64,000 nucleotides of DNA from positions 10,458,146 through 10,522,145 of the forward strand of contig CAJINV010000002.1 in NCBI GenBank assembly GCA_905178155.1. The letters are read 5' to 3'. Each line of letters begins with the position of its first letter. Position 1 is the stretch's first letter. Shown piece after piece: positions 3,300 to 61,400 of this stretch. The translations under genes and the position numbers were made by a program. The notes under the pieces are model-generated. The model was not told the DNA's origin, did no database searches, and saw only the letters and a program-made list of their open reading frames with translations. Origin of the DNA: Amoebophrya sp. A120 (Eukaryota; Protista; Dinoflagellata).

Positions 3300-6200
3300 T
3301 TACTTCTTTTCAGTAGCGGTTGAGCCAGCGGCGGTCTCAACCTTCTTGTCGCTCTGTTCCACGTCCTTTGTAACTTTAGTTGTCGCTTTTTCATCATTTT
3401 TTTGAGCCTTTGCCGCTGCAGCCGGGGCTGCAGCTTTTGCTGGCTCGTCTTTCTTTTGACTCTTCTTTTTGTTGTTCTTTTTCTTAGGTGCAGCAGCTGC
3501 CTGGTCTGAAGTGGCAGAAGCGGGCTGCTCTGGCTGCTGATTGTTCTTCTTTTTACCTTGTCCCTTCTTCGTGCCCTCCTTCGGCGCGGCCGGGGCACCT
3601 TGTTCCCGGTTATTCTTCACAGAATTTCTGGCATGCTCCGCCCAGAAGCCGCTGCTTCGTCGGGGCTCTTCTTGCTGCTTGCCCTGTCCCTTCTTGGCGG
3701 AAGCACCCTTCGTTCTCTTGCCGGATTGCAGCTGCTGTTCGCCACCATTGTAGACTTGTTGCTGTTGCTGACCATTCTGGTACATCATCATCTGTTGCTG
3801 ACCCGTGGCACTGGAGCAGCTCGCGGACGAGTTGCGTGCGACGCCGGAGTTTCGCGGGAGCGCGGCCCAGCACGGGTGCGTCGCTGTATTAGATTCGGCG
3901 TGCGACATGGTGAACGCGTTCTCCAAGAAAGGGTTCTGAACTCCGCAAAAGTTCCCGTAATACGTAGCGGCCATCGACATGGAGCTTGCCCTCGGGGCCG
4001 GAGTCATGTACGCAGCCGTCGAAGAACCGCAGGCAGCCGTCGGTGGCATTTGGAACGGTGCCGCATCCTTGTTAAGAGTGATAGCACTGCTTTTCGCGGT
4101 TTCTCTTTCAGCCGCGGATTTATTTGGAGGTACACCATTGGCTTCTCTAGTATCGTCGTCCGCGTTATTTGCTTCGCTTTTTTTTCCCTCCTTGGCGGCA
4201 GGAACGTCGGTACTACCAACAGCCTCCTTGCTGCTTTCCGCCGGCGCCGATGCGTTATTCGCGATAGCTCCGGAGGAAGGGGCTGACGCCTCCACGGGCT
4301 TGGTGTTGATCATGTGATTGGGGTCCACGAATTTGTTGCACTGGTTTGCGTACGCGTAGGGGTTGTCCAGGGAGAAATGCTGCAGGCTCTGCACCGCCGG
4401 CCCGCCGCCCACCCGCCAAGCGGACAGAAGCCGCTGGTTGGCTTCCTGCAACATGTAGAAGTACTGTTGCTCCGCTTCCTGAAACTGCATCACCAAAAGC
4501 TCCTCCTTCGAAACGGTTGGCGGCACAAACTCTTGCGCGTTCGGGTTGAAGGCGTCCGCGTTGCCATTGTAGAATGAAGGTCTGTGGTAGAGTAATTTGA
4601 CAAAGAATTTTTCACGAGGTTTAGGTTTTTTCCCTGGCGGTGCATAGATATCTTTTTCATGGACCAATGCAGGGATGTCTGCGTGTTTACATGAAACCAA
4701 AGTGAAACTGGAACTGCTCGTACGTCGTAAAATAAAGACACTGCTGCACAAGTACCTTCTGCTCTTTCGTCCGCCGCCCCGATTGGAAATGGAATCCTGG
4801 TCGATTCTGCCCGGACTCGCGAAGGCCTTGGAGACCCGGCGGGAACTGGAGATGATACTTCTCCGCACCGACTTCCGCGCGTCAAACTCGCCCTGCAGCT
4901 TCGCGATCCGGCCGGCCAGCTGCTCCTTCCGGGCGACCTTGGCCTTCTGCAGAGCGTCCAACTTGGCTTCCCCAGACTTCTCCTTCTCCTCCAGGAGCAA
5001 GATGTTCCGCATCTCGCGCTTCAGCTTCCGCAGGTGCTTGTCCTCGGCCTTGTCGTCCAGGAACCGCTTGTCCATGGGTTTGTGGGTCTTCTTCTCCTTC
5101 TATCAAATGTAAAAATGTCTGGGTCTGGAAATTTCTGAGACTTGTCATGCACGTTTTGCATGGGCCATGATGTCTGTGATGCATGCCCTACCATCACAGA
5201 CTTTTTGAGGGCTTCGCGATGCCTATTCCGCATGACAAATGCCTTCTCCGCGTAGCCAAAATTGCATTCCCTTTGCTGCTTATGCAATACAGATTTCTTT
5301 GGAATCCAAATGCAGCATCACAAGTTTGCATTCTTCCAGACCCAGACATTTTTGCATTTGATACCTTTTCCTTTTGGCCTTCCCCGGTGTGCGGCTCGGA
5401 CCTGTTTCCGGTGGACTTGCGCGACACCGGCGTTTGACAATCATTATAGGCAGAGTTTGTTCGGCTCTTCTTCTTTCGTTCGCCGGTTTGCGAGTACACG
5501 GAGGTCCGGCGGGACGCGTTGCTGTACACGGACGACCGACGCCCGTCCGCCTGGCTGTAGTTCGAAAAGACACTGTTGCGCCGGCTCTTGCTGGTGTTCT
5601 GGGTATTCAGGCCGGAGAAGTCGATGTTGTGGTGGGAACCCACACTGCACACGGATTCCCGCCCCTGCACAGACGAAATCGAGTTCCGCCGGCTGCGCCA
5701 GTCACAATCACCGTCCGGAGTCTCCTCGTACGCACGACGGCTGCGACGGGAAGTCTGTTTCATGGATGTTGGTTTTGATAATACATAGATAAAATCTTCA
5801 AGCAAAGGAAAGGGATGAGCTGCATCGAGCCAGAGCAGCCTGCCAAAAGCCTAATCTCCGGTCATACATTAAAGCGTACTACAAACGTTTTTTCTACCTG
5901 ACTCCACCGGGAGCTGTGACGGCTTGACTGCCGCGATTTGTTTTTCGTGATCTCCTTCCCACGACGACCGTGGTAGGTGCCGCCGACGCCCGGATAGTTC
6001 GCGTGCACAAACTGGTCGATCGATTCGCGGTAACACTCTTCTTCCAGGTACTGCTCACACAGTCGGTTGAAGTTCTGTAGAATTGGATAATTATTGAAAG
6101 TACATTATACGGGTTTCTGCTTGTCTTGTTTCAGGTTACACACGCACTGAAAGAACCTCAGTTGCCCCTTGATGTCAGTACCTGCGAAGATAACAACTGA

Positions 6201-6746
6201 CGCGTGCAAATGCAATTCCAATTCTGCATCAAAAATTAGCTTTATATATTGTATTACTTACCTCCAAGTCCAGACCCAACTCGGGGCTGCAGTCGAAGGA
6301 AGAGCACAGCTGTTCGTAAGCTTCGTCCCACGTTTGTTCCTCCTCTTCGAATCCCGTGGTAGCGGCGAACAGGCGCAATTCGTTACGGCCCAGGTACCTG
6401 GTAAGGATACAGCAACACAGGGTGAACAAGTTCACACTTTGTTTGATTTATTCTTATGATTTGAAAACACAAAGAAGTTCAAGTCACGGGATATGCAAAA
6501 GTGGGCGCCGGCCTGAGAGAAGTTTTAGTTTAATGATTGTGGTGGTCCCAATATGGTAAAAACTTACCCGTTGGTATCGGCGTCCAAGCAGCGGAACATT
6601 TTTTCCGAAGTGGACAGCTCCGCGTCCAGATGCTGGGAGATCCGCCGGGCAATGTTAGAGCTCGTCAACATCGTTTGCAGCGCATTGTCCAGAGCATCCT
6701 GCTGCAGCTCTTCGGCCTGCGCCAAAGCTGGATTCTGACTCGGCAT
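3300..6746 (-). CDS. Multi-exon protein with N-terminal EF-hand, a PYM/eIF2A-C-terminal-like helix and two PAM2 motifs (putative mRNA/translation factor)
   Basis: ORFs 6564-6746, 6229-6435, an exon at about 6075-5898, 5194-5805 and 3300-5075 join in frame through GT-AG introns and one introner. Splicing gives an EF-hand loop (FRCLDADTNG|YLGRNEL), KHLRKLKREMRNILLLEEKEKSGEAKLDALQKAK, and the PAM2-like FNPNAQEFVP (4521-4550) and LNKDAAPF (about 4053-4076). Confidence 0.7.
5101..5363. mobile_element. Introner/MITE-like element E1 (TAT...ATA, 30-bp TIR, 5-bp TSD)
   Basis: Left end tatcaaatgtaaaaatgtctgggtctggaa; reverse complement of right end tatcaaatgcaaaaatgtctgggtctggaa (29/30). Flanks ccttc (5096-5100) and ccttt (5364-5368). 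Removal joins ORF 5194-5805 to ORF 3300-5075 in frame (KEKEKKTHKPMDK). Confidence 0.92.
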
Positions 6747-8168: not shown

Positions 8169-8212
8169 ATCGTTAGGAAAATCGTTAGGAAAATCCTTAC
8201 AAGAAATCATTA
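8169..8212. repeat. Short degenerate tandem repeat (aatcgttaggaa-like, about 3-4 units) in AT-rich intergenic DNA
   Basis: atcgttaggaaaatcgttaggaaaatccttacaagaaatcattag is visible directly, with a further cgttagg at about 8064. Confidence 0.6.
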
Positions 8213-8323
8213 GCTACAGCTGTAAATGGAACTTCAATTAATTAAAAAAAACCTTTTATGGAAAAGAGGTGCGGAAAAAACCGCGAAATAAGATCGATCC
8301 TTTCCAGCAACTCCGTCCTCTCC

Positions 8324-13556: not shown

Positions 13557-16005
13557 TCAGAACTCGCACCAGTGCAAGTTGACGATGTCACTAGTGACGG
13601 ACGACTTCTCCACGGTTGGGAGCTTCAGCAGCCGCACCTGCTTGCACGTGTTTTCGTTAATCAGATCCGCTCCGTGCTCTTTCATCGCCTCGTGCAACGT
13701 CACAGACACCCAAAACCTTTTCTTGCTTGCCGGCATGGATGAAGCTGCACTGCCGACGGTTTGAAACTTCTGCTCCGTGGTGTCGTAGTTGTACTTGAAA
13801 TCGGAGCCAGCCGGTTCCAGCACCTTGAGCGAGTTGGTAATGTTTTCATCTTGGTGCAAAATTATCGTACTGACAGAAAAGGAAAACATGGTCAGGGGAA
13901 CAGCAAATAAATTATTGCGACTTTCAACATGAGAACGCCATTGCTGCAAATCAGAAAAATCACATCATACGTTTCTCATGCTCGCCAGCACCTGGTAGTA
14001 CATTTCGCTCTTCTGAGCAAAGTTGTCTAGCACGCCTTTCTCAAAAACGATGTCAAAATCGTCCAGCCCCAGTTCGAGGGGCTTCGTCGCGTCGAGAACT
14101 TGGTACTTAACTTCCGGGTTGCGTTCCTGCATCAATTTGACCATGGTGTCGGAGATGTCGGTCGCCGTGACGTCGTACCCGAACTTCGCCCGGACGGCCT
14201 CGGGCAGCTTGCTGTTGCCCGAACCCAGCATCAGGATTTTCACATTGGTATTCAGTTTCTTGTTCACCTCGTCGACCGCGCTCTTCGTTTGTTCATCTTG
14301 TTCAGGCTTGTTTCCGTCAGAAGGGGTCGGCGTGGCCGTGGAATAGTGGCGCAATATCGGCCCGTCAGGCCCGAAGAAGTCTTGCATTGTCTTCAGAGGC
14401 TTCGGTAGTTCGCCGCTGTTGTTCGTCAAAAATGCGGTCGTCTCGCTTTTCGATGCCTGCGCTGCGACGATGGTGCTGGCTGCCTCCGCACCGTCAGTGT
14501 TTTTCTTCTCGGACGTAGATGGCATTTTCGCGAATAGTTTTTCCTTGCGATTGTCGTCGATCTCCCCCACTTCCTTCATCGACAGCCGATTGCCGTCTTT
14601 GTCTACCGGGAACGTGTCGTCGTTCATGTCATCTTCTTTCTGGTAGTAGAACGGCCAGGACACCGGCAGGGAGACAAAATCTGTGTCCTCGTATCCTGTG
14701 CAAAAGTATCGCACTCGTAGTAATTGCAATCATGCATTACAAATTTTTTTCTTAAGGTAAATCCGCATTACAAATTTGATTTGCAATGCTGGGCGAATCT
14801 GTAATGCAATTTATACTAGTACGATACTTTTGCATTGCATACCTCGTCGCCGTCGGCGATACTGTCAATCTCCTCTTTCTCGGCCGCGTCAGTTCCCTTG
14901 AGCACCGGGGTGGTGGCGTAGGGGAAGAGTTCTTCATCGGGCGCGAAGTACCACTCGTACACGTTTCCGTTCGTCTGTTGGTACAACTGTTCCCAGTACG
15001 CCGGCTGGTCAAACGTGAACGTGTCCGTCAAGAATTCCTTCATCAGGCCGCTCAACTCCGTTTCCGGGAGCAGAGATTCCTTCTGCACCTTCACGCGAAT
15101 CACGCCCCGGAGCACGGACAGCGCGTTCTGCATCTGGGCCATCAGAGCCTCGGTTTGCTTTCCCGTACCGGAAGCCCACAAAACCTACTTCATTGATTCA
15201 CGACGTCGACTTGTTTGTATTAAAGGGAAGTATAAGAGCAATAGCAAAACAGGAGTCAGTGGACGAAACAAACACAAAGCTAATCCAGGTTGCAATCTAT
15301 AAACGGAAAGACGTCAAAGCAGGTGGGTCCTTTGATGTTTACGAATTCCTCCGCTCTCTTGCCGAACGCCTTCGTGTCCAGCAACAGCGTTTGCAGTTCT
15401 GCCAAAGAGTCCGAGTTCAGCTTCTCGCCGGTGGCAGCGATGACGAGCAGGTCCTCCATCATATGCATTATGAGCTTACGGATCGAGTTGTCCCGACTTC
15501 GCCGGTGGTACGCCACCGCCTCGAAGGGATCGTGCACCTCCGTGTCCACTTTGCCCGTCATCTTGTCCTCAATCCCGGGGTACATGTCGCTGACGTCTGT
15601 TTCGCCCGGCAACTCCGGCGTGTAGCCTTTGAGGCAGTCCAGGTCCTCGTCGCAGGCCCGTTTTTCGGCGCGCTTTTTCTCCTCTCGTTCGATCTTTTCC
15701 GCGAGAGCTTTTTTCTTCTCCTCCGCCGAACTCTTGGATTTTTTCTTTCCGGGCACTGTGCCATTTCCCGACGAACCTTGCGACACCAGGTCGTACACGA
15801 AACCGGAGAAAATGCAAACACCGAGGCCCAAAACAGCAAAGAGCCAGACGGGCGTTTTGGACGCTTGGGACAACTTTTTCGAGGGGTGTTTGGAGCCGAC
15901 AACATCGTAACTCCCAATGTTCAAGCTGCTCCGCTTGCCTTCCGGAGTGCTCAAACTGCTGCGCTTTTCAGCGAACGCCCTGTTCGAATCGGAAACCGAA
16001 GACAT
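13557..16005 (-). CDS. Class I SAM-dependent methyltransferase (EEF1AKMT4/METTL13-like) with N-terminal transmembrane segment
   Basis: Exons from ORFs 15280-16005, 14816-15181, 13965-14729 and 13557-13949. Motifs: YWEQLY...YEWY, ILMLGSGNS (motif I), VTATDIS, YQVLDAT, FDIVFEKGVLD. Hydrophobic stretch VWLFAVLGLGVCIFSGFVY. The 3'-most intron boundary is unresolved. Confidence 0.78.
14692..14841. mobile_element. Introner/MITE-like element E2
   Basis: tatcctgtgcaaaagtatcgcact...agtacgatacttttgcattgcata with perfect TSD cctcg (14687-14691, 14842-14846). Three GCATTACA(A/G)AT motifs inside. Removal restores DGDEDTDF. Confidence 0.9.
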
Positions 16006-17141: not shown

Positions 17142-17231
17142 TCGGAGTTGATGTAGATGTTGATGTCGCCAACGTCTTGGTCGTAATACTACGTGCTGAA
17201 TGTACGAAGCGAATCCTTAGTGTACCGATTT

Positions 17232-19331: not shown

Positions 19332-19473
19332 AAGATCAAAGATATATAAAACGAGGATCTGTTCATCGCCGCCGGTTCCAAAGATTTAACAAGCCTGCGC
19401 GCGAAAGCAGAGTTGAAGCTTTGTTTCCGTTCATCTCAGGATGATGAAAATTAATTGGCTTTCTTCATAATTT

Positions 19474-39672: not shown

Positions 39673-42600
39673 TCACGACTCACACAAGTATTTTTTCTCT
39701 CGTGATGCGGCTTTTACTTTTTGAAAAACTTTCATTCGCTGAGCGCAACTCCGGAAGAAAAAAGAATCACTCATACCCAAAAATGGCTGGTTTTTGCCCT
39801 CAACGCCACGAAGAAGACAACTACGGGAACGGCTCCCGCAACGAATTCGACGCAGTAAAGAAGCGAAGAGGAAGAGGACTTTTGAGAAATCATTGCAGCT
39901 CTTAGACACGGTCATGGTCATCGTCATGTCCTTGGCTACTTCTGTGAGCGCGCCTGAAGTTGATTGTGGTTGCAGCCTCGAAGGACGTACATTCTCTTGT
40001 TTATGTTTTCGACCGTCCTTACTGGCGCTCGCAGTTCCAAATGGAAAAGCGAAGTTCGGCTCTGGTTCCACCCCACTAGTGCGCGTTTGGCTCTTTCCTG
40101 CAGCGACCTCGCTGGTGTAGTGCTCAAGATTCCCAAAGGCAGCTTTTCTAAGCCCACGCACCGACGCTCTGCGCCGACGAAAGCTTTCTTCATTCTGGAC
40201 CAGTGGCGGCACGAGACTGGCGCAGGTAGGTCGAAACTTTCGGAAAGCACCCAGCACGTGCTGCACGTCCTTGACCGGCACGTCCAGCACATAACCTTGG
40301 GTCGACAGCGCAATCCTGCCCACGCGACGGATCAATGCGTTGGCTCGGTGCTCCGACGCCGTGCGCATTTCTGTGCCGTCCGACGCCGTGGTGCTGAAAA
40401 TGTCGTCTCCTAATGTTGTGTCGTGACCATCATTTTTAAAATCTCCGAATGGTTGAAAATTTCTCTTCCCCCCGGCCGATCCTTCCTGCGAAGAGGGCAG
40501 GAAATACTGGTGCAGTTCCTTCTGCAGCAGCACAAGCAGGCGCTGGCGACTTGTGGACGTGCTGGTCGTGTTCCGCAACAACACCGGCACATACGACGGA
40601 CGACCAGAGAGTGGGGACATCCACCTCACCTGTGTCTGTCGTGTCTCGAGTACGCACAAAGCTCGAGAAAGCAGTTCGATTCGCTTCTGTTGGCAGTCGG
40701 TCCGAAAAGGATCGTCTTCGGAAGAACGTCGTGCACGACTAGATGGTGCAGCCAAAGCCGCAGCATTGGTGTTCTTCCGAGCAACATCTTGCTCTTTCAC
40801 GCTTGCTGCTTTCCCTCCGATGATTCTGGTACACGCACGCGCCGTCGTCACGACGTCGAGACCGAGGGCCTCGCGACACTGGAAAAAGAGCTGCTGAACC
40901 CGTTGCAGCCGCATCGTTTCCGGCGTCGGCAGGGCCAAGTCTTCAAAGCCGATGCCGAGCTTTCGGCCGAGGCGGTGGTGGGGTGCGAAAGTCGAAGAAG
41001 ACCAAGACGTGCTCCCTTGCCAAAGAGGAAGACCGCTAGAAGTTCTTCCCGCAGCGGTGGTGGATGATCTCGGAGTCGAAGAAGAAAGCAGAACTACGCT
41101 TTTGCCTGTGTCACCTCGAATCCGCCCAACGCGGTGGACGTACGTTTCCGCAGAGGGCAACCGCTGCAGCAACATGCCTCTCCTGTGGTTCTTCCCCGCG
41201 TGCGAATACTCCATAGCAAGTTTGGGAACATGCACCACCAGTGTCACGTTGTCAAAGTCAAGTCCGCGGGCGGCCAGGTCGGTGGCAACCAGCACGGTGA
41301 CGTCGCCCTCGCGAAATGCCTGCACCGTCGCGGCCCGCTCGGCGTCCGTTTGCGCGGCGTTCAATTGACACACACCCAGTGCCTGCGTCCGCGCAGAACC
41401 CTGCAGCGTGTGCGTCACAAGATCGCAATCACTGCGCGTTGCAGCGAAGATGATTGCTTTGCTCTTTCGCAGCTGCGGCTTTTCTGTGCTGTGATAGGTC
41501 GTGTGGTGTGCTGCAGCAGAGCGCTGAGATGTTTCCGGCGCCAAGTTTTCTTGCAGTAGCCAAGAGAGAACGTCCCCAATATTCTTTGTTGACGGAATGC
41601 TTTTGCCATTCTTCGTCTCGCCTACCAGTGTCAGTGTGCAGTGATGTACATTTTGCTTTTGGGCGAAAAATTGCGGAACAGAGGTACCCGCCACCGTGTC
41701 GCTGATTTCAGACAAGCGGTCCGCGCAGCAATGCTCGCGCAAAACATCCCGCAGCCAGGGGGGTGAGGTGGCCGAGAAGAACAGAAACTGCAATTTGTTA
41801 TCTTGCGAATTGTTCATCTTCCGGACCGCTCTTCCATCACCAACCCCTTGCTGCACAGGTTCGAGTTTCGGGTTTTTCTGCGCTTCTTCTACACGAAGTC
41901 GTGTGTTGTTGGGCCCTATCCGCCACTTGAGGGTTTGCGCGGATTTGATGTGCGATAGCAGCTCCGTCATCTCCGAGGCAAAGCCGGACCCTGCATCAAA
42001 CATTTGGTCGGCCTCGTCGAACATGTCAAAATCAAAAAGACTGCCTCCCCATAGGCAAAAACTAAAACAGCTTTGGTAGTTTTATATATAATTATACGTG
42101 CAATTCATTGCAGAGAACAACGAATGCAAACGCAAACGGCGGACGCAACCTAATAGTCGGCTCGCTTGTAAACTACCACAAAAATCCGCATCAGATATCT
42201 GCGCTATCTTGTTGCAAGGAGAGACGCGATTTTATCGTCAGGATAGACAACCAGGATTCGGCAGTTCTGCAATGCAGTATACACGTTGGCCTTTACAAGC
42301 TCCAGCAGGAATTGCGGCGTCGAGATCACCACGTCGTGTCCTTCGCGGAGAAGTCTCTTAGTGTACAAAAACTTGTCCGCGCTGGGTGGATTCTTGGGTG
42401 TATCTGCTTTTCTTCTCGTCTCACCACTATCGCCCACCTGCCCGGCGCACGAGATGGTAGAACTTCTGGTCAGCAGCAACAATCTTTGCTCGCTGTGCTT
42501 CAACTTCATGGCTTCGAACCGTGTTTGCTCGGCCAACTCAGGCGTGGGGCACAGCCACAGAACCGGCTCGTGCCCAAAGAGTGAACGACTACTCGTGTCC

Positions 42601-43229
42601 CCGAAGAACTGATTTTTCCCAGTCCGTCTGCCGCTCGAGCTGGTGCTGGCCTGCTCGTCTGCTGCCGGCTTGCAATCGCCTATTCTCCTCATAACTGCCG
42701 TGCGGTCCAACACGGGCGCCAAGAAGGCTACCGTCTTTCCCGTTCCTGGGGCGGCGCGGGCCAATACGTCGAATCCACGCAGGACGCATGGAAAGGCCTG
42801 CTTTTGAATGGGCGTCAGGGGATAGTAGCGATGCCTGCGCAACCGGTCCTGCATCCTCGGCGACAGTTGCGGTTCACGTGTGCGACCGTCATCTTCGGGG
42901 GATTGGGCACTCTCGGTTGTACCAGCACCGGGTGAAGTGCGCAAAAGTCCAGCATTGCGGCTGCTTTTCAAAAACATGTTCTTGTTTCCACCGTTTCGGC
43001 GGGCATCGGAAACGCGAAGGCCCGACCTGCGTGCCCGCCTTCTTCGTATCTTTTTCTCACAACGGAAGGACGAGGCAAAGAGGAGAGAACGAACAGAAAT
43101 GCAGAACGGCAGTGGCCGGGTCGTGGTGGACGTTTCTGACAAATTTCGTAGAAATGCAGACGTCACTGGAAGCAGTGCTCCAGCTACGCCTGCAATCGAC
43201 GGCGAGCTCGTGGATAGGGGCGGCATCAC
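39673..43229 (-). CDS. DEAD-box RNA helicase, possibly DDX21/RH7-like with a GUCT-like C-terminus
   Basis: Q motif LTPIQ, motif I APGTGKT, Ia CPTPELAEQ, II LV(V/F)DEAD across an intron, III SAT, V ATDLAARGLD, VI YVHRVGR. C-terminal VGRIALSTQGYVLDVP is GUCT-like. The start is uncertain (ATG of MFLKSSR at about 42977 is plausible). Confidence 0.88.
42024..42245. mobile_element. Degenerate introner-like intron E3 immediately before the DEAD motif
   Basis: Transcript-sense ends TAT...ACA; flanks ttgtc/tgttc (3/5). Removal of the element plus 5 nt gives ILVVDEAD or ILVFDEAD. No GT-AG pair restores the motif, and TIRs are no longer evident. Confidence 0.6.
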
Positions 43230-43824
43230 TGCGCGATTACGAGTTTGTCCTTGTTGTCGCTCTAAACTTGTTCTAAACTACTTAAAAGCGCACTATTTCA
43301 ACTCCAACTGGCTTTTCTTGCCCGACAGGAGGTGGAATGCTGAACTTTCAGGCAGGTGCAGGAAGAGAGCCGTCAGGGATCAGCGGAACCCATGTTCATT
43401 CTTTTTTCGTCCGCTCGATCTCTGTCCTCCTCGCCGTCGCAGCGGTGCCGGTGGATCTAAGAGCACCATAGGCATAAATATGCGGACCAACACTAGACCT
43501 CAACGATCAATGGTGAAGATCTTGTGTGATCTCTTGGCATTTGCTCGATAATGGCAGCTATCCAATGCAACAGAGCTTGTCCGTGTAGACCTTCGAACCT
43601 TGCCTGGGGCACGTTGACGAGATGAAAACTTGAACACCTGCCCGAAAAAAATCAACTACGCATGGCAGCATCCTGCCAAAAGTGACGTCAGCGTCACCCA
43701 CCGCGTGCTTCATGTTGAAGCTTTATTTTCTCAACGCAACGTCTGGGCACAGTTTGTGTTCAAGAAGCACAACTTGCATGATCAAGAATGCAGCAACATG
43801 TGTGCGGTCCCGAGTGTACTCCGT

Positions 43825-44902
43825 TCACCACCGACCGCGTCTTTTTGCGGGTCCTCCCCGATTCTTGGGAAATCGCTCCTTCTTAAGAAAGTTTTCCACG
43901 TCGCGGTTCCTTTCTTCGTCCACATTCGCTGCTACATCATCTTCCCGCGGCTCCTGACGGCGCCGGCCGTGCCTGTTCTTCGGGGACGACGAATATGCAC
44001 TCGACATATGTCACAAGATGTCTGAATCTGGAATGAATGATGCGACACGAAAAAAACTCGCATGCACAACCAGCAGCTTGTGACATATAATTTGCAAGAA
44101 TGGATAACGAAGGCTCCTCTACATCCATTTCCTCTTCCGCCGCACGTTCATCTTCCACTTCTCCCCGCTTGCTACTGCTGCTCGCCCCACCATGATGACC
44201 AGTATTGTTCCCCTGCTCTCCTCCGCCGGTCGCGGGGGTCGGAGGCGCGTCTGCTTTCCCGATGGGTATGTGGAAACGGCTCTGCTCTACGCAGAGCAAT
44301 CGATTTGCGGGGTCCGACGGACGAATCCGGGTGTCGTGGAGCGCGAGCGCCTTCTCGAACGACACCTCGTCGCAGAACCGCACGACGCCCTGGCCTCGGG
44401 ACCGCCCGTGGGGGTCCAGGAACAGTTTGAAGTGGCTCACGGGACCGCAGTGGCGGAGGAAAAACTCCATCAGCTCGGCCTCCGTGTACTTGAAGGGGAC
44501 GTTGCTGAAGAACACGGAAGTGTGCACGCGCTTGCGCTCCGCAGCGACAAGAGGGTCCTTCAGCCGCACCCCCGTGGCGTACAGCTGGTGCCGCTCGTTG
44601 CGTGCCAACTGGCCGTAGTACACCTCGTCGCCCTCGCGAATGTCCAGCTCCGGGTCGTCCAGGTCGTGGCAGTGCACGAAAATCTGGCACCCGTGCTCGT
44701 TGTACAGCTTATCGCTCTCGATGTAGCCGTAGCCCTTCTTCTCCATCCACCGGACGACACGCGCGACGTCTCGAACCTTCCCAGAGGGACCCGGGACGAG
44801 CTTGGCCTTTTTAGGCAGCACGCCATCGGGCGGATTCGCGCTGTGACTGCTGGAGGACGAGGAGGGCGCAGCAGCTGCCGCTGCAGCCGACGTCAACGTC
44901 AT
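43825..44902 (-). CDS. Cold-shock domain + RRM RNA-binding protein
   Basis: CSD: VVRWMEKKGYGYI...IFVH...EGDEVYY...ATGV. RRM: VFFSNVPF...RSRGQGVVRF. The last exon is ORF 43825-44007, reached by removing element E4. Confidence 0.85.
43994..44106. mobile_element. Introner/MITE-like element E4
   Basis: TAT...ATA ends with perfect TSD acgaa (43989-43993, 44107-44111) and inner inverted repeat atatgtcacaag/cttgtgacatat. Removal gives EEPSSSPKNR in the frame of the terminal exon. Confidence 0.85.
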
Positions 44903-45136
44903 GGCCGAGCGGATATCGAAAGGAAATGCGTCCCGCCCTTACAGCGAGATTTCGTATTGTTTGGGAAACAGAAATTTTTACGATAACGAGACAGCTAAGT
45001 AGGAACTCGTCTTCAAGATATGCCCGTATATGACGCACGGCATGTGTTTCTGTGTATCTGAAGCTGAGCGTCCGACTCGTTTCATGCCTTCTAGTTCTAG
45101 TTCTACATGGTGGAACATCTGCATCACAAACACTTC

Positions 45137-46246
45137 TCACTGCTGCAAAGCGGGTTCAGGGACGGCGCACGTTTTAACGTGGTAATTGACGGGCTTGCTG
45201 TTTCTTGCAAGGACCACTGGCTCATCTCCCGCTGCGGAAGTCGTCGCGGCCACGTTGTCTTGTTTTCGGGCAAGAAGAGAAATTCCTCCTGATGGTGCGC
45301 TCTTTTCTGGCGCCATTGATGCTGTTCCCGGCTTGCGACCGGCGGCGGTCGATGACGCACTGGCAGAATGTTGCTGCTGCCCAGGAAATTGCTTCTCCAA
45401 AGGTAAGTCCGTGAATCGGATCGGCTTGATCATCGGTTTTATCTTTGCCTTTTGCAGTTCCACCTTCGGCTGCTCGTGTGGTTCCTCATTTCTCATTTCT
45501 ATTCCGTCACCACGTTCTTTGTCCTCTCGTTCGCGTGAATCTTGGCCGCGCTGTTCATCTTCATCTTGATAATGTTCGACTCTCTGCACGCCCTGCGCCT
45601 CTGGCACGCCGTTCGGAAACCATGTGACTCTTTCAAATGAAACACTATCGCCGACCGAAAAAGTTGGTTTCCCGCCATTTCTTGCGCCTTGTTCTTGGCT
45701 GGCCGGCATTTTAAAAGTCGCTTTGCGTGCGAAGTCCGGGCCCGTCACCCAACCGCGATTTTTTTCCGCGTCAAACGCAACCACGGTGGCGCGTATCGGG
45801 TCGCCCGACCGAGGCGGGGGGTGCTCAAACCAGGCTGGTTCCTCAAGACTTTTGCTTGCATTTTCGCCTACGAGAACGCCAGCATCGTCAAGTCCCCGCC
45901 CATCGACTCCACCGACAACCGCTCGCTCGCGTCTGGCCGCCGCCTCCTCATCTTCTCTTTCCAGTCGCCTTCTCTTGGCATCTTCCTGGACGAAGTCCTC
46001 TCTGAGCGGCACGCCTCCAAATTCCGACAAGACTTCGTCGTCAACATCCAACCGCTTGGAAGAAGATGACGAGGATTTGGAGTTTCCTCCTGCGCCACCG
46101 TTTCGGTCTTGTGCCTGCTTCAGCTCCTTCTGCAGCAGGGACACGTTCCACGCCTTGGTCTTGGCATTGTAAAACTGTGCCAAGTTCGCACCCTTGCTGA
46201 GCCGCTTCAGCCGGAGAAACAACTCGGAACATTCCTTCTGCGACAT
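45137..46246 (-). CDS. Protein with a divergent cold-shock/OB-fold domain (separate gene or 5' part of the CSD-RRM gene)
   Basis: 369-aa ORF. ATVVAFDAEKNRGWV...FSVGDSVSF...AQGVQRV is CSD-like. Confidence 0.68.
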   Translation of the reverse strand: MSQKECSELFLRLKRLSKGANLAQFYNAKTKAWNVSLLQKELKQAQDRNGGAGGNSKSSSSSSKRLDVDDEVLSEFGGVPLREDFVQEDAKRRRLEREDEEAAARRERAVVGGVDGRGLDDAGVLVGENASKSLEEPAWFEHPPPRSGDPIRATVVAFDAEKNRGWVTGPDFARKATFKMPASQEQGARNGGKPTFSVGDSVSFERVTWFPNGVPEAQGVQRVEHYQDEDEQRGQDSREREDKERGDGIEMRNEEPHEQPKVELQKAKIKPMIKPIRFTDLPLEKQFPGQQQHSASASSTAAGRKPGTASMAPEKSAPSGGISLLARKQDNVAATTSAAGDEPVVLARNSKPVNYHVKTCAVPEPALQQ

Positions 46247-47020
46247 GTTGATACGTATTTACGCTGCTCAGTGTACTTACTACAGAGGTTCAAGTTTTGA
46301 TGCTGTTAAAACGCGCACTCAAATAAAAGGAATTCTGCAACACGTCGCCAGATGGACGAATAGGAGTACCAGTACAAAGTTCCAACTGTTCTTGTCGCTG
46401 TGGCTGTGAACAAAGATGATTCGGAGCAAAGCGAAAGTGCAGTACTCCTAGATATACCTAAAAGGAAGCCAGCGTGTGGGGCGAAAATGAGTTATGTGCT
46501 AGCCCCGACGACACCACCCCACCACCGCCCACCGTCTGGTAAAAATTCAAACGTACTGGCGGACAAAGAACCCTTCTCTTTGTGCCAGATCACTCGTGTT
46601 CGCAATCGGTGTATACCATGATTCCAGATCACAATCGCAGTGCCGGGTCCCGGTCCCTCGCCCGCAAGACACATTTCTATTTGCAAACAAGGAAACAAAG
46701 GATCTACTGCCTCCACGGCTGAAGTGGACAAGATCTTTGTAGGATAGGAACAACACAGCTGAATTCTGAAGGAAGATAGGACACCTCCTTCCGTGTATAA
46801 TGCTTGTAATTGCACAAGAGCCATATCCGAGAGGTTGGAAACCTGCGAACTGTCCTGCGCTCGTCGCGATTCGCGAACGCGACTGTTTTGAAGATGAATT
46901 CTTTCGAGCAGGGAATGTGAATGTCGCTGATAGATTGTCGCCTGAAATAAAGGGTGAATAGCACCACTTTCGGTGCTTCCGGTGCCGCTGTTTCACCTTT
47001 GCATCGAGTTCCTCCGAATG

Positions 47021-50000
47021 TCACCACTCCAGATTTAGTGACTTCAGCTGGCACTCCACCTTTTGAAGGTCGATTTTTGCCTTCGCCCGCTTGTAGAAGA
47101 TGGGGCAATCGGAGTTGGCGCAGATCACCTCTTGATGCAAACTGTCCTGACACCTTTGGCACTCCGTCCAGAGCCGCTGAAACTCAATCTGCTTCTCCCG
47201 GACTTCGGTCAGCTTCTCAAAGTAGATCTCCGGACCTTTGTCCTTCATGCAGTACTTGCAGAGCGCCAAGTCCTGCTGCTCCGACCCCTCTTTCTGTGTC
47301 ACCATGGCGACGGTACTTGGCTGTGGAATTTAGTTTAGTGAATGTCATGAGCTTTTTGGTTTGCAAGAGCAAGGTGAAAGAATGAGATTTGACCATAAAT
47401 CCTTTGTTCTTGGCGCACATGAACTGCTCACACCACAAGCATTCAGTAATCAGTTTTTGATATAATGGTATCAGGGACAGATCAATCGAAGGAGTATTGC
47501 AGTTTGTTCTAGCTCTACGTGGTCTCTACTGCCATGGAGTTCCACGAAGTCGGACTCGGAGGCCGCATAAAGATCTTCGTTCAGGACGATAAAGACCACG
47601 GATTTGGATCCCGGACCTTGACATTAACGAGCGCAAACGCTATAGTACCTTCAGGGTAGTCTTGCAACCGAGGCACTTTTTCGCAATGGTGACCTTCGCT
47701 CCGTCGCCAAATCCGAATTGGTTTGTGTTTTGGACCGCGGACTGAACGATTTTGCGGGTGTGATCGCCAGTGAACAGCTTCTGACTCGCGTTCGGCATGA
47801 TGGGGTCAAAAATGCGCAGCAACGGGTTGGCCAGCTGGTGGTCAATGTACCAGTGGGCGTCAATGGCCAATCCGTTTTCCAGCACATACATGGGATCTTC
47901 GCTCTTCTCGTAGTGGCATCACCAGAAAAAGTGTTCACGCTACCAGCTGCGTTGCGCTACTTGACGCGCTGCTTTCCTACATCAAGCCAAAAATGACAAA
48001 ACTCAGCCATCAGAAACTTTGCATGCTAAGCAAATATACCACCATAAACATAATATTTCGCATTATTTGAAACAGCATTTTCCAATCTTGTAGATATCGT
48101 GAACACTTCTTGCCGTGATAAATTGGCCGTCTTTTTCATGCTTTTCACTATTACGTAGGGGACCCGGTCACCGGCGCCGGGCGCTGTTGCTGGGTTGCGC
48201 TGCCGCATGCGTTCCGCGAGCTCCACGTGGGCCTGCTTCGCGGCGTACTCGTCTCGGCCCAGGGACTTGGAAATCACGAGCAGTGCGAGGTCCACCTTGT
48301 TCTGCAGCAGGTCGGACACAGATTGCTGCACGAAACCGATGGCCTGATTATAAAGTGAGTATCACCACTTTTTTTTTGGATCGGCGAGACGAGTATGGTG
48401 CATTCTATTTCTATGTACGAGTACTACATCAATAGAAAAATTCGGCCAGAAATACCATAGTACCTTCTCCTTACTGCGGTCAATGAGCAGGCACTTCAGT
48501 GCGGTGTCGACAACGCGCTGTACGAGCCCGCAGTTGTCGCGGCGGACCGTCTCAATGCCCTTTGTGTCCATTTTGTCGTACTTATCCGGATTGGTCCAGT
48601 ACAGGCCTGCGTACCGCTTTTTTGCGAGCAGCAAATACGGAAAGTAGACTTTCTCGAACTCCAGCTTAATCGGCTTGAGAAACGTGGCGGAAATTTTGTC
48701 CGCGGCCTTCAGGCCGAGGTCCATGGACTCCTTTACGGTGTCCGGGCCAAACTTCACCATCACAGAATCCGTGTCGCCATAGATTACCTCGGCATCGTGC
48801 TTGTATCCGTTCGCAATCGTGAACTCCCTGTTTTTTTCGTTTATTCTCACTTTATCCATATCTTCGTCGATCTCGGTAATCCATTATCATGACATCAAAC
48901 TGCATTTTTGCAATCGGTGATTCAAACGCTTTCTTCATCAACTCCTTGATTTTTGCCATGATTTGATTTCGAAAATCCAAGTGTTGTATCATTCTAGAAG
49001 AAAAACGGCAGCTGTACTGTTGCACAAGGTCGCGGGTTTGTTCGATCATGGTCCTGCCGAAAGCGGTGACAGAGGAGGAGATTTCCAGGCAGGGCATCAT
49101 GCCCACCTGCGCACCGGTGAAGCCGTACACACTGTTCGCGCTGATTTTCAGTGCCAGCTGCCGCCCGTTCAGGACCGCCTTCTTGAATGGATCCTGCTCC
49201 GCGTTCATCTCTTTTTTTGCGCGTTTCCTCGCCCCCAGAAGGTCCTCCAGGATCAGCGGCAACAGCCCCTTTCGCTTCGTAGGCTTCACGAAGTAGTTAC
49301 CGCAGGGTGTCACGGTGTAGTCGTCCTCGCTCATGTTCTCCACCTTCCCCGTGCTGGGTTTTATCAGACTGTTGGGGATCAGGGTGCAGTAACACAAATT
49401 GTGCGCCATCATGATCGAGGGGTACAGCGAGGCGAAATCCAGCGTGGCGATCGGTTTGTCGTAGAAATCCGTTTTCGGGTCCAGCACCGTGGCCCCCTCG
49501 AACTGGTCCCCGGTCTGTTCAACCTTGCGCGCCGGGGCGATGTAGCCGGACTCGCGCGCGCGCCGCAGGATTTGCCCGAACACCTTGATCGCCTGCCCCC
49601 GGAACTATCCAATGTGAAAACCCAAGCAAAAACTTAACATATCTTTATCTTCTGCCGTGCAAAATTACAAATTACTTGCGGCCATGATTGCGCAAAACCG
49701 AACAAGGAGAAACTTCTAGATCTATTACGTAATGCGGCCGCACTGCGGCAGCACGTCGACGCTGGCCCCTGTGGGGCGCCACATGCATGCGTGACTTGGA
49801 AAAGTTATCGGTTGCTGCACTAATAATAACGAGTATTTTTGCGTTTTCCCACTGGATAGAAAAAGCAGGAAATTCAACGGCGTGCCGGTGACGCGGGCCA
49901 TCTCAACGTAGTTGTAGAGGCAACAGAGCTTCTCGAGCAGTCGCAGGGGCAGCTTCGCGTCCTTCAGACAGTAGACCCCGAGCCGGCGGCGCGTCTCCGC

Positions 50001-52735
50001 CGTCCCTGTGTGCAGTGTGCCGATCATGCTGTAGTGCACGTCCTCCTTCTGGTCGCCCAGAAAGTGGGAAGACACGAAGTTCAGCGTGTAGGACCGCAGG
50101 TTGTGCTCCTTGGTGATTACGGTGTACATGTCGAAGATGATCCGCCCGTCGCACTTCACCTCCTTCTGCGGCCGCCCGTTCGGCGTGGTCCACTCGCGGA
50201 TGCGGGATATTACAATGAAAAATGCCCCCTCCCCATATCAAAACGGAAATCTGTGATGCAGATTTGTGGTCACAAATTTGTGATGCTAGAAGGCAAAAGA
50301 TGCGGACTGTAGTGCTGTCTAGCGTGGGAAAGCCTTGCAGCTCCAGGATGACAGGAGACAACTGGAAGTGGGAAACAGCATGACAGATTACCTGCAATTT
50401 AGGCCGCAGCTTCGTCTCTTGGCCTTCTAGCAATACAAGTTGATTTGTGTACTCAAATACAGCATCACAAATTCGCGCATCTTCCGTTTCCGATATGGGG
50501 TGGGGGCTTTTTTCACTTTGATACGGGACTGCACCTTCGCGAGGCGGCCCAGCTCGGCGAACTCCGGGATGTCGAGGGCGGCGGCCCGCTTGAGCAAGTA
50601 GGTATGGCGTTCTCAACTGTTACATTCTCAACTGTTACATGAATTTGTCATGCATACCCGACTGCACCACATCAAAAACCTTTGCACCGTCGCCGCAAGC
50701 AGCTTCGGACGCAGGAGATCTAGGGTCAGAAATACGGAAATACGGAATTTGTCATGCAAAAACAGAAATACGGAAAGGGACAAGCTTGCAAGTCTTGCAT
50801 CACAAATTGGGTACAGATTTAGATGCTGTTTAGCCCTTCGATAATTTGTCATGCGAAGCAGCTTGATCTTCTTGCAGCTCATGGTCATTTTGCATGACAA
50901 ATCATGTAACAGTTGAGAATGTAACATTTGAGAACGCCATAGTAGGGCAGATCGAAGTTGAGAATGTTGTACCCGGTGAGGAAATCGGCGTCGATGGCGA
51001 CCACGAATTTGGAAAAGGACACGAGCAGGTCCCGCTCGTCCGTGAACGAAAGGACAATCGTGTCCGCGATGTCTCTATCCACAGAAAAAAACCCATCCAC
51101 ATCCATTTTTTGCATGACAAACACATGATTTGATACGTGTTTTGCATCACAAATTGGATGTGGATGGGTTTTTTTCTGTGAATAGTCTCCGCAGCTGTCC
51201 AGCGTCCAGATCACCTGCGCGAACGCGGGCCCGTCGGCCCCCACGCACTTCACTTCCGCGGCGATCTGGATCACCGGGTTGCGCTCGGCTTCGGGAAACC
51301 CTTTGCCGAACTGGTTCCAACACTCGATATCGAAACTCAAAATCCGCAGCGGGGCGAAGGCATTCTGGTCGGAGGCAGGCTCCACGGACTTGTAGAAAAC
51401 ATCCAGCTCGATCTGGCACGTACCTGAGCGGAAAGGATTCGAAAAACTAAAACCTCCAAGCAACACTCTTTCGTACCAGCACACAGGTATAGTTGTATAC
51501 CTTCTATTTTTCTTGATCTAACTATCTATCTACTTTTGAAGGAAAAAGGCGAAGATTTATCTACTTTTCTTGCAGATCTATCGAAATCGATGCCTGAACT
51601 CTAGTAAAATAGAATCAAAAGAACGGCGCCTTTCTCGCGTACCGACGCGCTCGTCCGGGTTGGTCCGCAGTTTGTACATGCAGGGGGCGAGCGACACCCA
51701 GGACCCGCCGCCAAGCCCCTGGTCTACCAGAAACCGCAGGACGAAGGGCACGTTGGTTTCAAAGGTACCGAAGCCGGTGTACATCCCACCCCCCACGAGT
51801 TGAAAGCCCGTCTCGATGGCGGTGCGTGCGGCTTGGACCAGGCGCTGCACGCCCACGTGCACCTTGTAGTAGGACCGCAGTCCGTTCTCCGACCACTCCA
51901 TGACGTTGGTCTTCTGCACGATCTCCACGGACAGGACGTTTTTGTTCAGGCCGATGGCTACCCGGGACTGCCGCAACTGCGCCTCCAGGGACTCCTGGAA
52001 CACCTTCGCGTCCGGGATCGTGCCCCCACTCACTTGCTGCACGGGGCAGTAGAAGTAGGGGCAGAACCCGTGGATGTGAGCCAGCACGGAGTGGCCCTCG
52101 GGCGTCACGCCGTACATGCGCAGGATGGGTACCTCGGGGTTGGGACTGTCCTTCAGAAACACCGGGTGGGGCCGGCCCTGGTAGTCGTCCAGGTCCACCT
52201 GCATGAAGGTCAAGGGCTTGGTCGCAAAGTACGCGTCTACCGCCGCGGGGGGAGGGGGCGGCGGTGCGGAGGACGAGGACGATGCGGAGGCGCCCGTGAT
52301 TGGCAGGAGCGGTCGCGCGCTGCTGGCCGCGGCTGCCGCTCCATTTGATGAAGTAGAAGACGGTCCTGCGGGTGCACCAGCTGCGGCGTTGGAGCTGGAG
52401 GAACTTGCTGCGTTACTGCTACTGCTGGTCGTAGTTCCACCACCACTAGCTGCAGTCACCATGCTGGACCCGACAAGCGGTCGCTTCCATTGCTCGTAGT
52501 CAATTTTCTTGGGCTCTTTCACGATGTTCGTGCTGTCCTTCAGTTCCACATGGACCAGGCTGCTGGACGACGATGCCGCCGCGGCGCCGCCCAAACCTTC
52601 AGACGTGCCCTCCAGCAGCTGCTCGTCATCGGTTCGAAGCCGTTTCGCTGGCGGGCCGTGGCGACTCTGCTGATCCCGGATGTCCTGCTCAATCAGAGCG
52701 TCGATGTCATCGTCAAAATCAATGTTATCCTCCAT
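47021..52735 (-). CDS. POLD1: DNA polymerase delta catalytic subunit, 10 exons
   Basis: ExoI SFDIEC, Exo[14 protein letters not shown], Exo[49 protein letters not shown], CysA CLGC...CKYC, CysB CQRC...CANSDC. GT-AG introns: 51424-51642, 48828-49017, 48344-48463, about 47294-47648. The five other introns are introners E5-E9. Confidence 0.98.
47917..48120. mobile_element. Aged introner E5 in POLD1
   Basis: Arms catcaccagaaaaagtgttcacg versus reverse-complement tatcacggcaagaagtgttcacg; flanks agtgg/aattg (3/5). Removal of the element plus 5 nt gives KTANYEKSEDP or [11 protein letters not shown]. Confidence 0.78.
49606..49858. mobile_element. Introner E6 in POLD1
   Basis: Arms tatccaatgtgaaaac versus reverse-complement tatccagtgggaaaac; flanks ggaac/gaaaa. 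Removal of the element plus 5 nt gives the conserved [11 protein letters not shown]. Confidence 0.85.
50208..50523. mobile_element. Introner E7 in POLD1
   Basis: About 41-bp imperfect TIR (tattacaatgaaaaatgccccctccccatatc... versus tatcaaagtgaaaaaagcccccaccccatatc...), perfect TSD cggga (50203-50207, 50524-50528), four internal motif copies. Removal gives VQSRIREW. Confidence 0.92.
50603..50941. mobile_element. Introner E8 in POLD1
   Basis: 40-bp TIR tatggcgttctcaa(c/a)tgttacattctcaactgttacatga (39/40), perfect TSD gtagg (50598-50602, 50942-50946), five motif copies. Removal restores ExoII NFDLPYLLKRA. Confidence 0.95.
51076..51184. mobile_element. Introner E9 in POLD1 (near-palindromic, in-frame)
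   Basis: 30-bp TIR tat(c/t)cacagaaaaaaacccatccacatcca (29/30), perfect TSD gtctc (51071-51075, 51185-51189), two motif copies. Removal gives [16 protein letters not shown]. Confidence 0.95.
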
Positions 52736-58426: not shown

Positions 58427-61400
58427 TCAAAGTTCCGCGCGGTCGTGGCCAGCCGCGGGCGGCGGTGCCCCACCTGCGGCGCTCCTCGGCGAGCGGCCGC
58501 TCCCCTTGCCCGGACCTGTTCGGGGCCGACCCGGACCCCCGCGCTTGTTATTGTCCTCGTCGTAGTATCCGCGAGGCTTCTTTCGGCGCTGCGCCGAGGC
58601 GCCGGGGGACTTCTTTTTGGAAGCCGCGTCGCTGAGCTCGCTGAACTCCTCGGCGACGATGTCGTCGAGCTGCTGCTGTCGCGTTACCGCGTTGGTCTCC
58701 ACCCACTGGGCCAGCTCCGTCAGGTTTGCGGGCGACATTTCGTTCACATTCTTCACGAACAATCCCGCAAACAGTACTAGGAAAGTCAGGAAGAGGAACA
58801 GACAGCAGCAGGCCGAGCCACAGGAGCAGGTACCCCCCGACGTGGAAGATGCGCCGGCCTTCGCGCCCCGATCGCCAGCGCTCCCCGGACCAAGGTGCAC
58901 GGTGTAGTCCCCACTGGCAGACAGAGCCGTGGCAGGCCCGCTAAAGGCCACGCACTGCACCGCGAGCTGGTGGATGGGCTTCTTCGCGCTACCGCACATC
59001 TCCAGCTTCTTGAACGGCATCAGGCCTGCGCGGTAGCCGGCAACGTCGAGGGAGTACCTGTTGTAAGTTGTTTTCTCTTTAGGTAGCGGGCGAAAGAAAA
59101 GGAGCACGCAGAGGCACCACGATAAATCAGAATCACAAAACTGATGAAGCAACAAAAGACAAAATCCAAACAAAAATGTACAAATTTTTGTGCCCCTGGA
59201 CAAATCCGCACATCATCCGGTTTTTCTGGAGATTGATGCGCAGTGCGGAGCATGGCTTCGGATCGGTGTTTACTTGTATCGCGCATTTGGGTTCCTTTGC
59301 AGCCTTCCAGATACCCAGCTGTTATGCGATGATTAAAAGAGAGAATAAAAATGACAATGAGATGAAACTGCAGTAATTATTCATGGTCTCCGATTCAACT
59401 CGTTCCTTGTTCTCGATTCCTTGCAGCGACGTGAACTTTTGCTTCCTCACGTTATTTTCCGACTAAACAATAGTTTCAAAAAAACAAAGACACGACTTCT
59501 TCCTACCATCGCAGGGCCCCTGGGACCCGCGGCACTGAGGAGCACACTGTCTTCAGTCAAGAAGTGCGGGAACTTGAGAGTCATCGGGCTCGGCTGCTGC
59601 ACATCAGGGTCGTTCCATACTATTTTCGACACTTGTTCGCCCGTATCGATACGCCAGACGCAACAGCTGCGGTCTTCAGAAACCGTGGCGACAAGCCTGT
59701 TGTGTGCAGTTCGTGCTCGTGGTCGTGCATAAATCCTGATAAAAATACGGAAAAAACTTTCCGTGTTTTAAATCGTCCTCATCCTCATCGACAAGATCGA
59801 AAAAAGGGTGCTAGGAAGTACACAACCAAAAAGGAAACTGAAAAGAATCATGCCGATAGTCGCATCGTACTTTTCGTCTGGGGATACGTCCATAGCTTCG
59901 ATTTGCTTTGTGTGTCCCCCAAACTCCACCAGGGGTGTGTTTTTCCAGTCTGGGTAACTCCAGACCTTAGCGACGCCATCCGTTCCCGCTGTTAGAAGAT
60001 AACCCTCGCAGAGACTGTGGAATTTCATTTATTCATCGTGATAAAATAAACCATGTCTCAAAAATACATACATACACGCTCCACGCGGCTCTGCGAGAGG
60101 TTTGTGGTGCTCTAAATTTGACCCTGTCTCCCGGAAAGCGATCCACCCAACGTAGTACGGGCGAGCAAGGGTGTGAAGGAACCCTCTGCGTTCGTGATGT
60201 GGACGAACGCCGCAAGAGGTGAACAAGGATCCTGGAGGTGCCTGGGCCGCCCTTTGCTGGGGGGGGCGACTTAGAGCGCACCGGCGGGCTCTATATCGAT
60301 CCATGCTCCTGATGGCCGCGTCAATGCGTCTTCGCTACGAGCGTCGTGTTGATTGATTTTGCCGCGATCTTTCAATGTCGGCGGCGGGCTACAAGCCTTG
60401 TGCCGCGTTCATCGTGCATCCTGTATTCTAGCGGATGCAACTGCTCCATCTCTCCACAGATAGAGAGAGGAGGGGGGGAATCTACTACGAGCAGGCCCCC
60501 CGATGCCAGGGCAGCCTCTACGGCAGCAACCCGGAGGGCAGACGCGGACGCACGGGAAAGGCGCAGGGACCAGCCCTGCGAGGGCATTGCATGCGTCAAC
60601 GCGCGTAAGTAAGAGCGATGGGGGGCGCAGCCCAATCCTTCGGACGCGGGCCCATGGCTTTCAGGTGCTTGCTAGGTGGCAGGGAGGCGCATGGCAGTCG
60701 CGGGCCTTCGTGTCTCGCACATCTTTGCGCGCTCGCTGCGTGGCCCTGTATTGGCGTCCCGTTGTCGTATGCTCCGGGGCTGCACACGCAACCGATCGGA
60801 TGCGACGGGCATGCCACAGGGGAGGCTACAGGGGCGTGGGCAATGTTTTTAGACGCTGAAGGCGGCGCGCGATGGTCTAGCTGCGAGCTAGACCTGCTGC
60901 GGCGAGCGTTCCACGGACCGAACTAGGCCAGATGCTCCACAGGCCTCGCGTAGCTGAGGCGGATACATTGTCTCACTCTGAGCGCGTTGCCAGTCGGTCC
61001 TGGCATCTGCTGGGTCCTAAAGACAGACCAAGTACTTTTGTGCTCCGAGCACATGGGCTCCCTTCCCTACAAGGGCGGGAATGTCTCAAAAATGAATGTC
61101 GGAGGAGTTGTATGTAGGTAGTCCTAGTCCTCGGAAAAAGAATGTGCAACAGCCCTTGTTCACACTGCTGCCCAAAACAACATCAGCTGTCAGCAACAAG
61201 AGTTCGCACAAAGAGACGTAAGAAAGGAAGTAGTACATCATTAGCTCCTGGCAGCCCGGGTCCTCGCCGCCAGTATATCTGTTTGGCACGGGTTTAACCT
61301 CGCTTTTAAACTCGTGGACCACCTTCATTTTTTCATCTTCTGTTATCTCCAATACGTAGCCCTTGGGTCCCGCGGACACGCACCACAGGTCCTGTTTGGC

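Follow-up and report, generated by a model that had tools for sequence, protein, structure and literature searches.

About two thirds of the introns spliced by the marine parasitic dinoflagellate Amoebophrya sp. A120 have no GT-AG borders. In its genome 29,850 repeated introns were described as introners, with inverted repeats that start with TAT and direct repeats of 3-5 nucleotides (nt), given as 5 base pairs (bp) in the legend of Fig. S19 (Farhat et al. 2021, PMC7789003); in the legend of Fig. 3 the border inside the repeat is left unfixed, and the repeat length is variable. A later survey classes most of 21 of the 58 A120 rows of one dataset as DNA elements with terminal inverted repeats (TIRs) and unassigned superfamily, and its family 38 combines TIRs with open reading frames (ORFs) like those of long terminal repeat elements (Gozashti et al. 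2025, PMC12130899). In introners of the Micromonas type one splice site comes with the element and the other is taken from the target-site duplication (TSD) (PMC11282704). Here we analyzed a window of 64 kb of the A120 genome in which ten insertions of this kind lie within exons of six genes. They are very probably known A120 introners that are removed from RNA. The fuller reading is that they are likely non-autonomous DNA transposons, likely spliced out together with five duplicated bases, and that this is probably done by a relaxed spliceosome cutting at one position of the duplication (register 4, defined below); taken as a whole we consider it probable rather than established.

Coordinates of the elements refer to the forward strand and all host genes are on the minus strand; arm identity is the ungapped match over the terminal 25 nt. 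The gene of the catalytic subunit of DNA polymerase delta (Pol delta; 47021-52735, A120 record P0001) has ten exons, four canonical GT-AG introns and five introners: E5 (47917-48120; arms 19/25, copies of the flanking 5-mer alike at 3/5 bases, 3' end ATG, single copy), E6 (49606-49858; arms 19/25, 5-mer copies 3/5 with both differences silent, single copy), E7 (50208-50523; arms 20/25, exact 5-mer, a high-copy family), E8 (50603-50941; arms 24/25, exact 5-mer), situated in what we take to be exonuclease motif II, and E9 (51076-51184; arms 24/25, exact 5-mer). E3 (42024-42245) interrupts motif II of a DEAD-box helicase and is decayed, with arms 10/25, 5-mer copies 3/5, 3' end ACA and a single copy in DNA, and E4 (43994-44106) lies in a cold-shock/RRM gene, close to its 3' end, with an exact 5-mer and arms 9/25 ungapped (a 12-nt arm is offset by 6). 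E1 (5101-5363; arms 24/25, 5-mer copies 4/5 with a silent difference) interrupts a gene of no known family and E2 (14692-14841; arms 20/25, exact 5-mer) a methyltransferase-domain gene. The tenth element, En (38958-39202), has TAT..ATA ends, the exact 5-mer GCTGC on both sides and decayed arms (13/25). An earlier account of the window made from its letters (the sequence-only reading) also listed ten insertions; it placed E1-E9 correctly and overlooked En, while its E10 (60030-61237) is an ordinary intron, described further below. Exons of the window are 100% identical to A120 records (the Pol delta exon to P0001, a WD40 exon to P0133).

The ten elements are 109-339 bp long. All start with TAT at the transcript 5' end, and all except E3 and E5 end with ATA. 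The 5-mer copies are exact in six (E2, En, E4, E7, E8, E9), match at 4/5 bases in one and at 3/5 in three. A 5-bp duplication with TAT..ATA ends, proposed earlier as common to all, is therefore found among E1-E9 with TAT in 9/9, but with ATA in 7/9 and an exact 5-mer in 5/9, the copies having drifted in E1, E3, E5 and E6. TAT followed by 7 variable nt and at least three A is present with exact spacing in five elements (E1, E2, En, E7, E9), displaced by 1-3 nt in E3, E4, E6 and E8, and in E5 the A-run is found only at the opposite end. With a spacing of 80-500 nt and an arm identity of 19/25 or more, TAT..ATA pairs occur seven times in the window (six distinct elements and one pair inside E2) and never in 100 local dinucleotide shuffles. 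When only an exact 5-mer was required there were 11 in the window, compared with an average of 1.8 and at most 8 in the shuffles, so that the 5-mer by itself is a weak sign, and a general inverted-repeat scan of the window gave no further convincing element. Since the best pairwise local score between elements is 40, compared with self scores of 218-678, there is little sequence in common beyond the ends, and we are dealing with several families of one architecture and not with a single family as was first thought. The 5-mers all differ, as the sequence-only reading had observed when it denied target specificity; a weak preference is, however, compatible with the data, AG being present at 5-mer positions 3-4 in 3/10 elements.

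All of this is in accordance with the published A120 introners: the same genome, inverted repeats with TAT and an A-run about 7 nt on, direct repeats, a length of about 110-340 bp and no transposase (PMC7789003, PMC12130899). Repetition in the genome was found for E7-E9, and E3-E6 resemble the singletons of the paper. The observation as such is already known, and the earlier statement that introners with inverted and short direct repeats are reported in Amoebophrya was right, as Farhat et al. describe them in this very genome (PMC7789003). Nothing here is different in kind, except that a net length of 5 was obtained at every site that allows it to be fixed, that mismatched copies point to one register, and that an internal motif links families. 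The value of the present analysis is in a register that can be tested and in the motif common to several families. The inference of the register from mismatched copies and the motif are new, although Figs S19-S25 of Farhat et al. (repeat length, position) may already bear on both; a literature search, with most subscription journals outside it, found no published fixing of the cut position.

The reading frame fixes the length of a deletion only modulo 3; proteins fix it exactly at several sites. The published, transcript-guided Pol delta model P0001 removes 209, 258, 321, 344 and 114 nt at E5-E9, in each case the element plus 5. We compared it with 119 aligned homologues, counting those that cover each site: all have the length of the model at E5 (105/105), E6 (119/119), E8 (110/110) and E9 (108/108), and at E7 3/111 do, including the two nearest relatives. 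The low figure at E7 is a consequence of a 4-residue gap of the lineage, which is common to relatives and so was not caused by E7. At this site (amino acids 513-516) 4-5 residues are absent in Amoebophrya and in some dinoflagellate homologues. Orthologues of the helicase from an AT5.2-type genome and from A25 read ILVVDEADQ and IVVLDEADQ at the E3 site, with the length obtained by removal of the element plus 5. For E1 and E2 removal is read from the frame (159+601 and 111+243 open codons are joined), and at En removal of the element plus 5 lengthens the frame from 24 to 104 codons and joins 57 + 104 open codons. E4 leaves 59 open codons when present and 57 when absent, so its removal need not follow from the frame. 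Use of GT-AG alternatives within about 36 nt of the ten elements would alter or delete conserved residues in every case at E3 and E5-E9, and is compatible at E4 and En. The claim that deleting an element plus exactly 5 nt restores the frame is therefore exact at E5, E6, E8 and E9 by homologues, at E7 by the two nearest relatives and at E3 by orthologues; at E1 and E2 it holds modulo 3, and at E10 it breaks down, where it adds three residues. As for transcripts, RNA runs X9 and X10 (2026; evidently another strain) gave 7 and 54 mapped reads, all 90-95% alike and none on host exons, and run X3 (about half read; presumed RNA) gave no cover of host exons. X3 is one of four presumed RNA runs that contain 0.59-0.62 of the sequence words, a share that we do not take as evidence.

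Reverse transcriptase can jump between repeats and ribosomes can hop between codons, so one may suppose that the elements are retained in mRNA, the published junctions being such jumps between the direct repeats and the protein being made by hopping between matched codons. A direct repeat with a hairpin suits such jumps, and any 5-mer contains one whole codon. However, in E3 and E5 the two copies have in-frame codons with different first bases, which leaves no matched landing codon; the gaps are 114-344 nt long, five of them in one essential single-copy gene, and E3 has little hairpin. We regard retention as very improbable.

We define the register as the number of bases of the upstream 5-mer copy that are kept in mRNA; at register 4 the intron begins with the base that precedes TAT and includes the four bases that follow ATA. 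With exact repeats six registers all yield identical mRNA, and the cut position is hidden from every aligner. Mismatched copies are present in four of the ten elements, silent in E1 and E6 and informative in E3 and E5. The ILVVDEADQ of the orthologue is obtained at E3 only if at least three upstream-copy bases are kept, and at E5 the AN-Y of the orthologue there only if at least two are kept; the published model has the upstream residue at E5 too. This indicates that coding sequence is retained from the upstream copy, and it favours register 4, in agreement with the GTA of local donors at +2/+3. E1 and E2 are GT..AG at register 4 (5097-5364 and 14688-14842) and at no other register, and En is CT..AG there. 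All ten introns would begin N-T-A-T at register 4, and all eight canonical donors in two published models (P0001, P0133) begin GTA, from which comes our proposal that the element end supplies donor positions +2 to +4. Both deviations from TAT/ATA, in E3 and E5, are at the 3' end. The elements share TIRs and a TSD with Micromonas-type introners, and E1 and E2 likewise take their AG from the TSD to become GT-AG introns; in contrast to that type, GT/GC-AG sites are present in 2/10 and there is no such register in the rest, and the duplication is 5 bp and not 3 bp (PMC11282704).

The course of events could be as follows. A candidate DDE transposase, which likely binds GCAT(C/G/T)ACAA, would insert the elements at a 5-nt staggered cut, and the youngest families are seen in DNA to have spread genome-wide with these exact ends. 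Judging from protein homology and the published model, the mRNA must be without the element and 5 nt. A cut at register 4 would make the intron N-TAT...ATA-NNNN, in which donor positions +2 to +4 come from the element (+2T and +3A are common to all local canonical donors), and +1 and the 3' dinucleotide would be derived from the target and free; where these are G and AG by chance a canonical intron would result, as in E1 and E2. Symmetric element ends mean that the donor positions would be supplied in either orientation. The hairpin would aid young copies by drawing their ends together and would decay later. We have moderate confidence in the combination of register 4 and the spliceosome. A relaxed spliceosome is favoured because A120 has nearly all spliceosome proteins and the same layout of inverted and direct repeats in 15% of its canonical introns (PMC7789003), because E1 and E2 are canonical, and because E3 must be removed although its ends are unpaired in the predicted fold.

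Several points weigh against this explanation. U1 small nuclear RNA (snRNA) was not found in A120, nor did Farhat et al. find a transposase there (PMC7789003). Eight of the ten elements have no GT-AG register, and the two canonical cases are little above chance, as by our estimate roughly 0.4 would be expected over all registers. Base 5 is the same in both copies in 10/10 elements, so registers 4 and 5 are inseparable by sequence; the proposed register comes from two of two informative sites and two canonical cases, and register 3 is set aside by the E1/E2 argument alone. The splice tables of large families show 5' GT/AT and 3' AG/AC about equally raised, as would be given by a strand-blind aligner (PMC12130899). 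The arms show no significant RNA-strand bias (G.U versus A.C mismatches 7 versus 4, p=0.27). No empty allele was seen at the DNA level; 60 metagenome Pol delta loci, the best segments of which are 32-71% identical and none of which is close to Amoebophrya, gave none at base level. Removal and register are proposed from proteins (homology and the published model), not from a spliced read or contig. Table S4 of Farhat et al., in which the nine top A120 classes all start N-T, had been considered as support for register 4 and was dropped, because 8/9 also end A-N and the paper relied on HISAT2 for its junctions (PMC7789003), and because the family tables (PMC12130899) show symmetry.

The ends of the elements also raise the question of a different machinery. 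Folding z is -8.5 to -14.8 in E1, E2 and E7-E9, -0.9 to -3.9 in En and E3-E6, and about 0 in four canonical introns, two of which entered the control with ends a few bases off. In the predicted folds of E1, E2 and E7-E9, between 13 and 20 of the 20 nt at the start are paired with the last 30, and in E3 0/20 are. Such end-to-end folding of young elements would be expected if a protein nuclease and a ligase, and not the spliceosome, cut and joined the RNA by reading the terminal hairpin, a route suggested for the nonconventional introns of euglenids, and the large share of elements without a canonical register and the undetected U1 (PMC7789003) point the same way. On the other hand E3 must leave the DEAD motif although its ends do not pair, a significant G.U bias is missing, TAT is kept in 10/10 elements and ATA in 8/10, as expected of a donor-like signal, and E1 and E2 require no new machinery. 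We therefore consider this mechanism unlikely. Euglenid nonconventional and Fritillaria non-canonical introns do resemble the elements in their TIR hairpin, TSD-like repeats, non-canonical borders and likely origin from miniature inverted-repeat transposable elements; however, the euglenid CAG at +4..+6 and CTG at -8..-6 are not conserved in the elements here, Fritillaria introns are AG-AC/AG-AT, and both lineages are unrelated (PMC11282704). Rather unlikely, too, is the more sweeping proposal that A120 cuts tens of thousands of elements by a ruler on transposon ends, with a dedicated and possibly non-spliceosomal machine that uses neither U1 snRNA nor a 3' AG, and that one IS3EU/Ginger-like transposase binding GCAT(C/G/T)ACAA drives all families.

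Evidence for the transposon nature of the elements comes from the contigs of a DNA run (X1), from which the window itself may derive and the summed depth of which is no copy number; contig edges were taken from the 15 loose ends listed of 384 and the 15 joints listed of 53. Unique sequence has a depth of about 25, and in bins that hold E7-E9 the summed depth is 5,600-46,800. Contigs depart from the window exactly at both ends of E8 (87 at 50603 and 85 at 50941) and at the left end of E9 (37 at 51076), and the flanks of these contigs are unrelated (agreement 0.36-0.38). The ends of E7-E9 join many different flanks, which shows genome-wide dispersal with exact ends. E3-E6, on the contrary, are contained within one unbroken contig at a depth of about 25 and with no differences, and are apparently single copy. 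Decay tracks copy number, and the agreement of copy number with the series of folding z bears out the earlier claim that the copies are at different stages of decay. That claim was part of a wider one, of non-autonomous DNA transposons removed at the RNA level, which the dispersal of E7-E9, the folding series and the same reading by Farhat et al. support, with the amendments that E10 is an ordinary intron and that E1 and E2 do have a canonical GT-AG register.

The same contigs speak to excision from DNA in some nuclei or stages. Internally eliminated sequences of ciliates are excised as the element plus one repeat copy, with one copy left behind, and this is the geometry of element and 5-mer seen here. 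The contigs, however, carry E3-E6 whole with a flat depth equal to that of exons, and clean loss of an element was seen in 0/15 of the joints listed (contigs drop rare variants), which makes DNA excision extremely improbable. It could also be supposed that these are old introns with ends that merely resemble transposons, as the arms of E3, E4 and En are weak, the elements are single copy where tested, and one of the 60 metagenome Pol delta loci breaks near E5 and one near E7. Yet the families of E7-E9 are dispersed with exact ends, and 98.6% of introns common to A25 and A120 are canonical (PMC7789003). The outside loci that cover the sites are uninterrupted at E9 (46/46), E8 (46/46), E7 (46/47), E6 (51/51) and E5 (51/52), a weak test, since Amoebophrya is not among them and the majority are poor in introns or represent transcripts. 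Altogether an origin as old introns has very little probability. A 765-amino-acid gene call of an AT5.2-like relative is uninterrupted at the E5-E8 sites as well; it was discounted because canonical intron sites are uninterrupted in it too, and it may be a transcript.

The otherwise unrelated families share the motif GCAT(C/G/T)ACAA, picked after inspection of the elements, with 14 copies in 2,214 bp of elements (E1, E2 and E7-E9 only) and 2 in the other 61,786 bp of the window. A motif common to such families makes a common mobiliser likely. No transposase family was found among the 30 window ORFs scanned, and the elements themselves are too short to encode one. IS3EU/GingerRoot elements have TA..TA termini, which are exact in 8/10 elements here, and occasionally TG..CA, E3 having a TG-type end; their TSD is usually 6 bp, in contrast to the net length of 5 here (PMC10045372). 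We take them as a lead for the mobiliser and assign no membership. The shared motif is a handle for finding the missing transposase. Drifted 5-mer copies such as the four described here lift the ambiguity of exact repeats, so that existing RNA-seq can fix the register genome-wide. A register that is indeed fixed, with only +2U and +3A kept, would show how a spliceosome can accommodate transposon insertions whatever their site or orientation.

E10 had been included among the introners. The idea of an introner in decay, with another insert nested in it, was refuted by orthologues: its arms match at 9/25 with no inverted repeat, and it is a canonical GT-AG intron (60015-61236, minus strand) of a WD40 gene (A120 record P0133). 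Read from 61236 to 60015 the intron starts GTACTA, like two Pol delta donors, and its last 11 bases are identical to a Pol delta acceptor. GT-AG removal gives QELMILCEG, the same as P0133 and colinear with a third homologue as well as with the A25 orthologue. What makes the intron long is a multi-copy insert inside it (60066-61080, minus strand; 1015 bp, 62% GC), flanked by 13-bp direct repeats (60053-60065 and 61081-61093) and with a short tail of 4-nt repeats at 60066. Unique X1 contigs bear out this unit: they stop at 60093 and resume at 61052, which with 31-base words places the repeat at about 60064-61081, and its summed depth is 170-380 compared with 25. Retroposons typically have a long target duplication and a short-repeat tail, and on account of these two features the insert is likely a retroposon.

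The insert gave two chance-level matches in Rfam (E 0.36 and 1.5) and none in Pfam for its six short frames, and its folding z is -1.5; a likeness to U1, U2, U4 and signal recognition particle RNA noted by eye was not borne out. Depth at 60303-60440 reaches about 1,050, compared with 200-400 elsewhere in the insert, as would be seen if this part were at the same time a member of another, more abundant family or of a small-RNA gene. A T-run before 60303 is present in reads of two other-strain RNA runs (5 and 45 reads) and in one X3 contig, and corresponds to the A-tail of a minus-strand RNA that ends at 60303 and comes from a related copy of the insert. The stretch 60303-60338 is the only one in 20 kb with more than a couple of other-strain RNA reads at 90% or above.

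The minus strand carries every host gene of E1-E9 and indeed all identified genes of the window, which fits the unidirectional clusters reported for Amoebophrya. A search with the helicase (42246-42845, minus strand) among proteins of 351-2000 amino acids gave A25 and other relatives and no A120 record, and the published A120 model may be split or of other length. The region 39673-52735 is syntenic with an AT5.2-type genome: neighboring genes here match its adjacent g853, in which cold-shock, RRM and helicase are fused, and g854, which is Pol delta. An intronless open frame of 4,422 codons at 25360-38628 (minus strand) has no Pfam match and contains internal repeats, including an inverted pair at 35229-36066. 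This 13-kb frame is free of elements, while the Pol delta gene alone holds five of the ten, three of them inside 1 kb.

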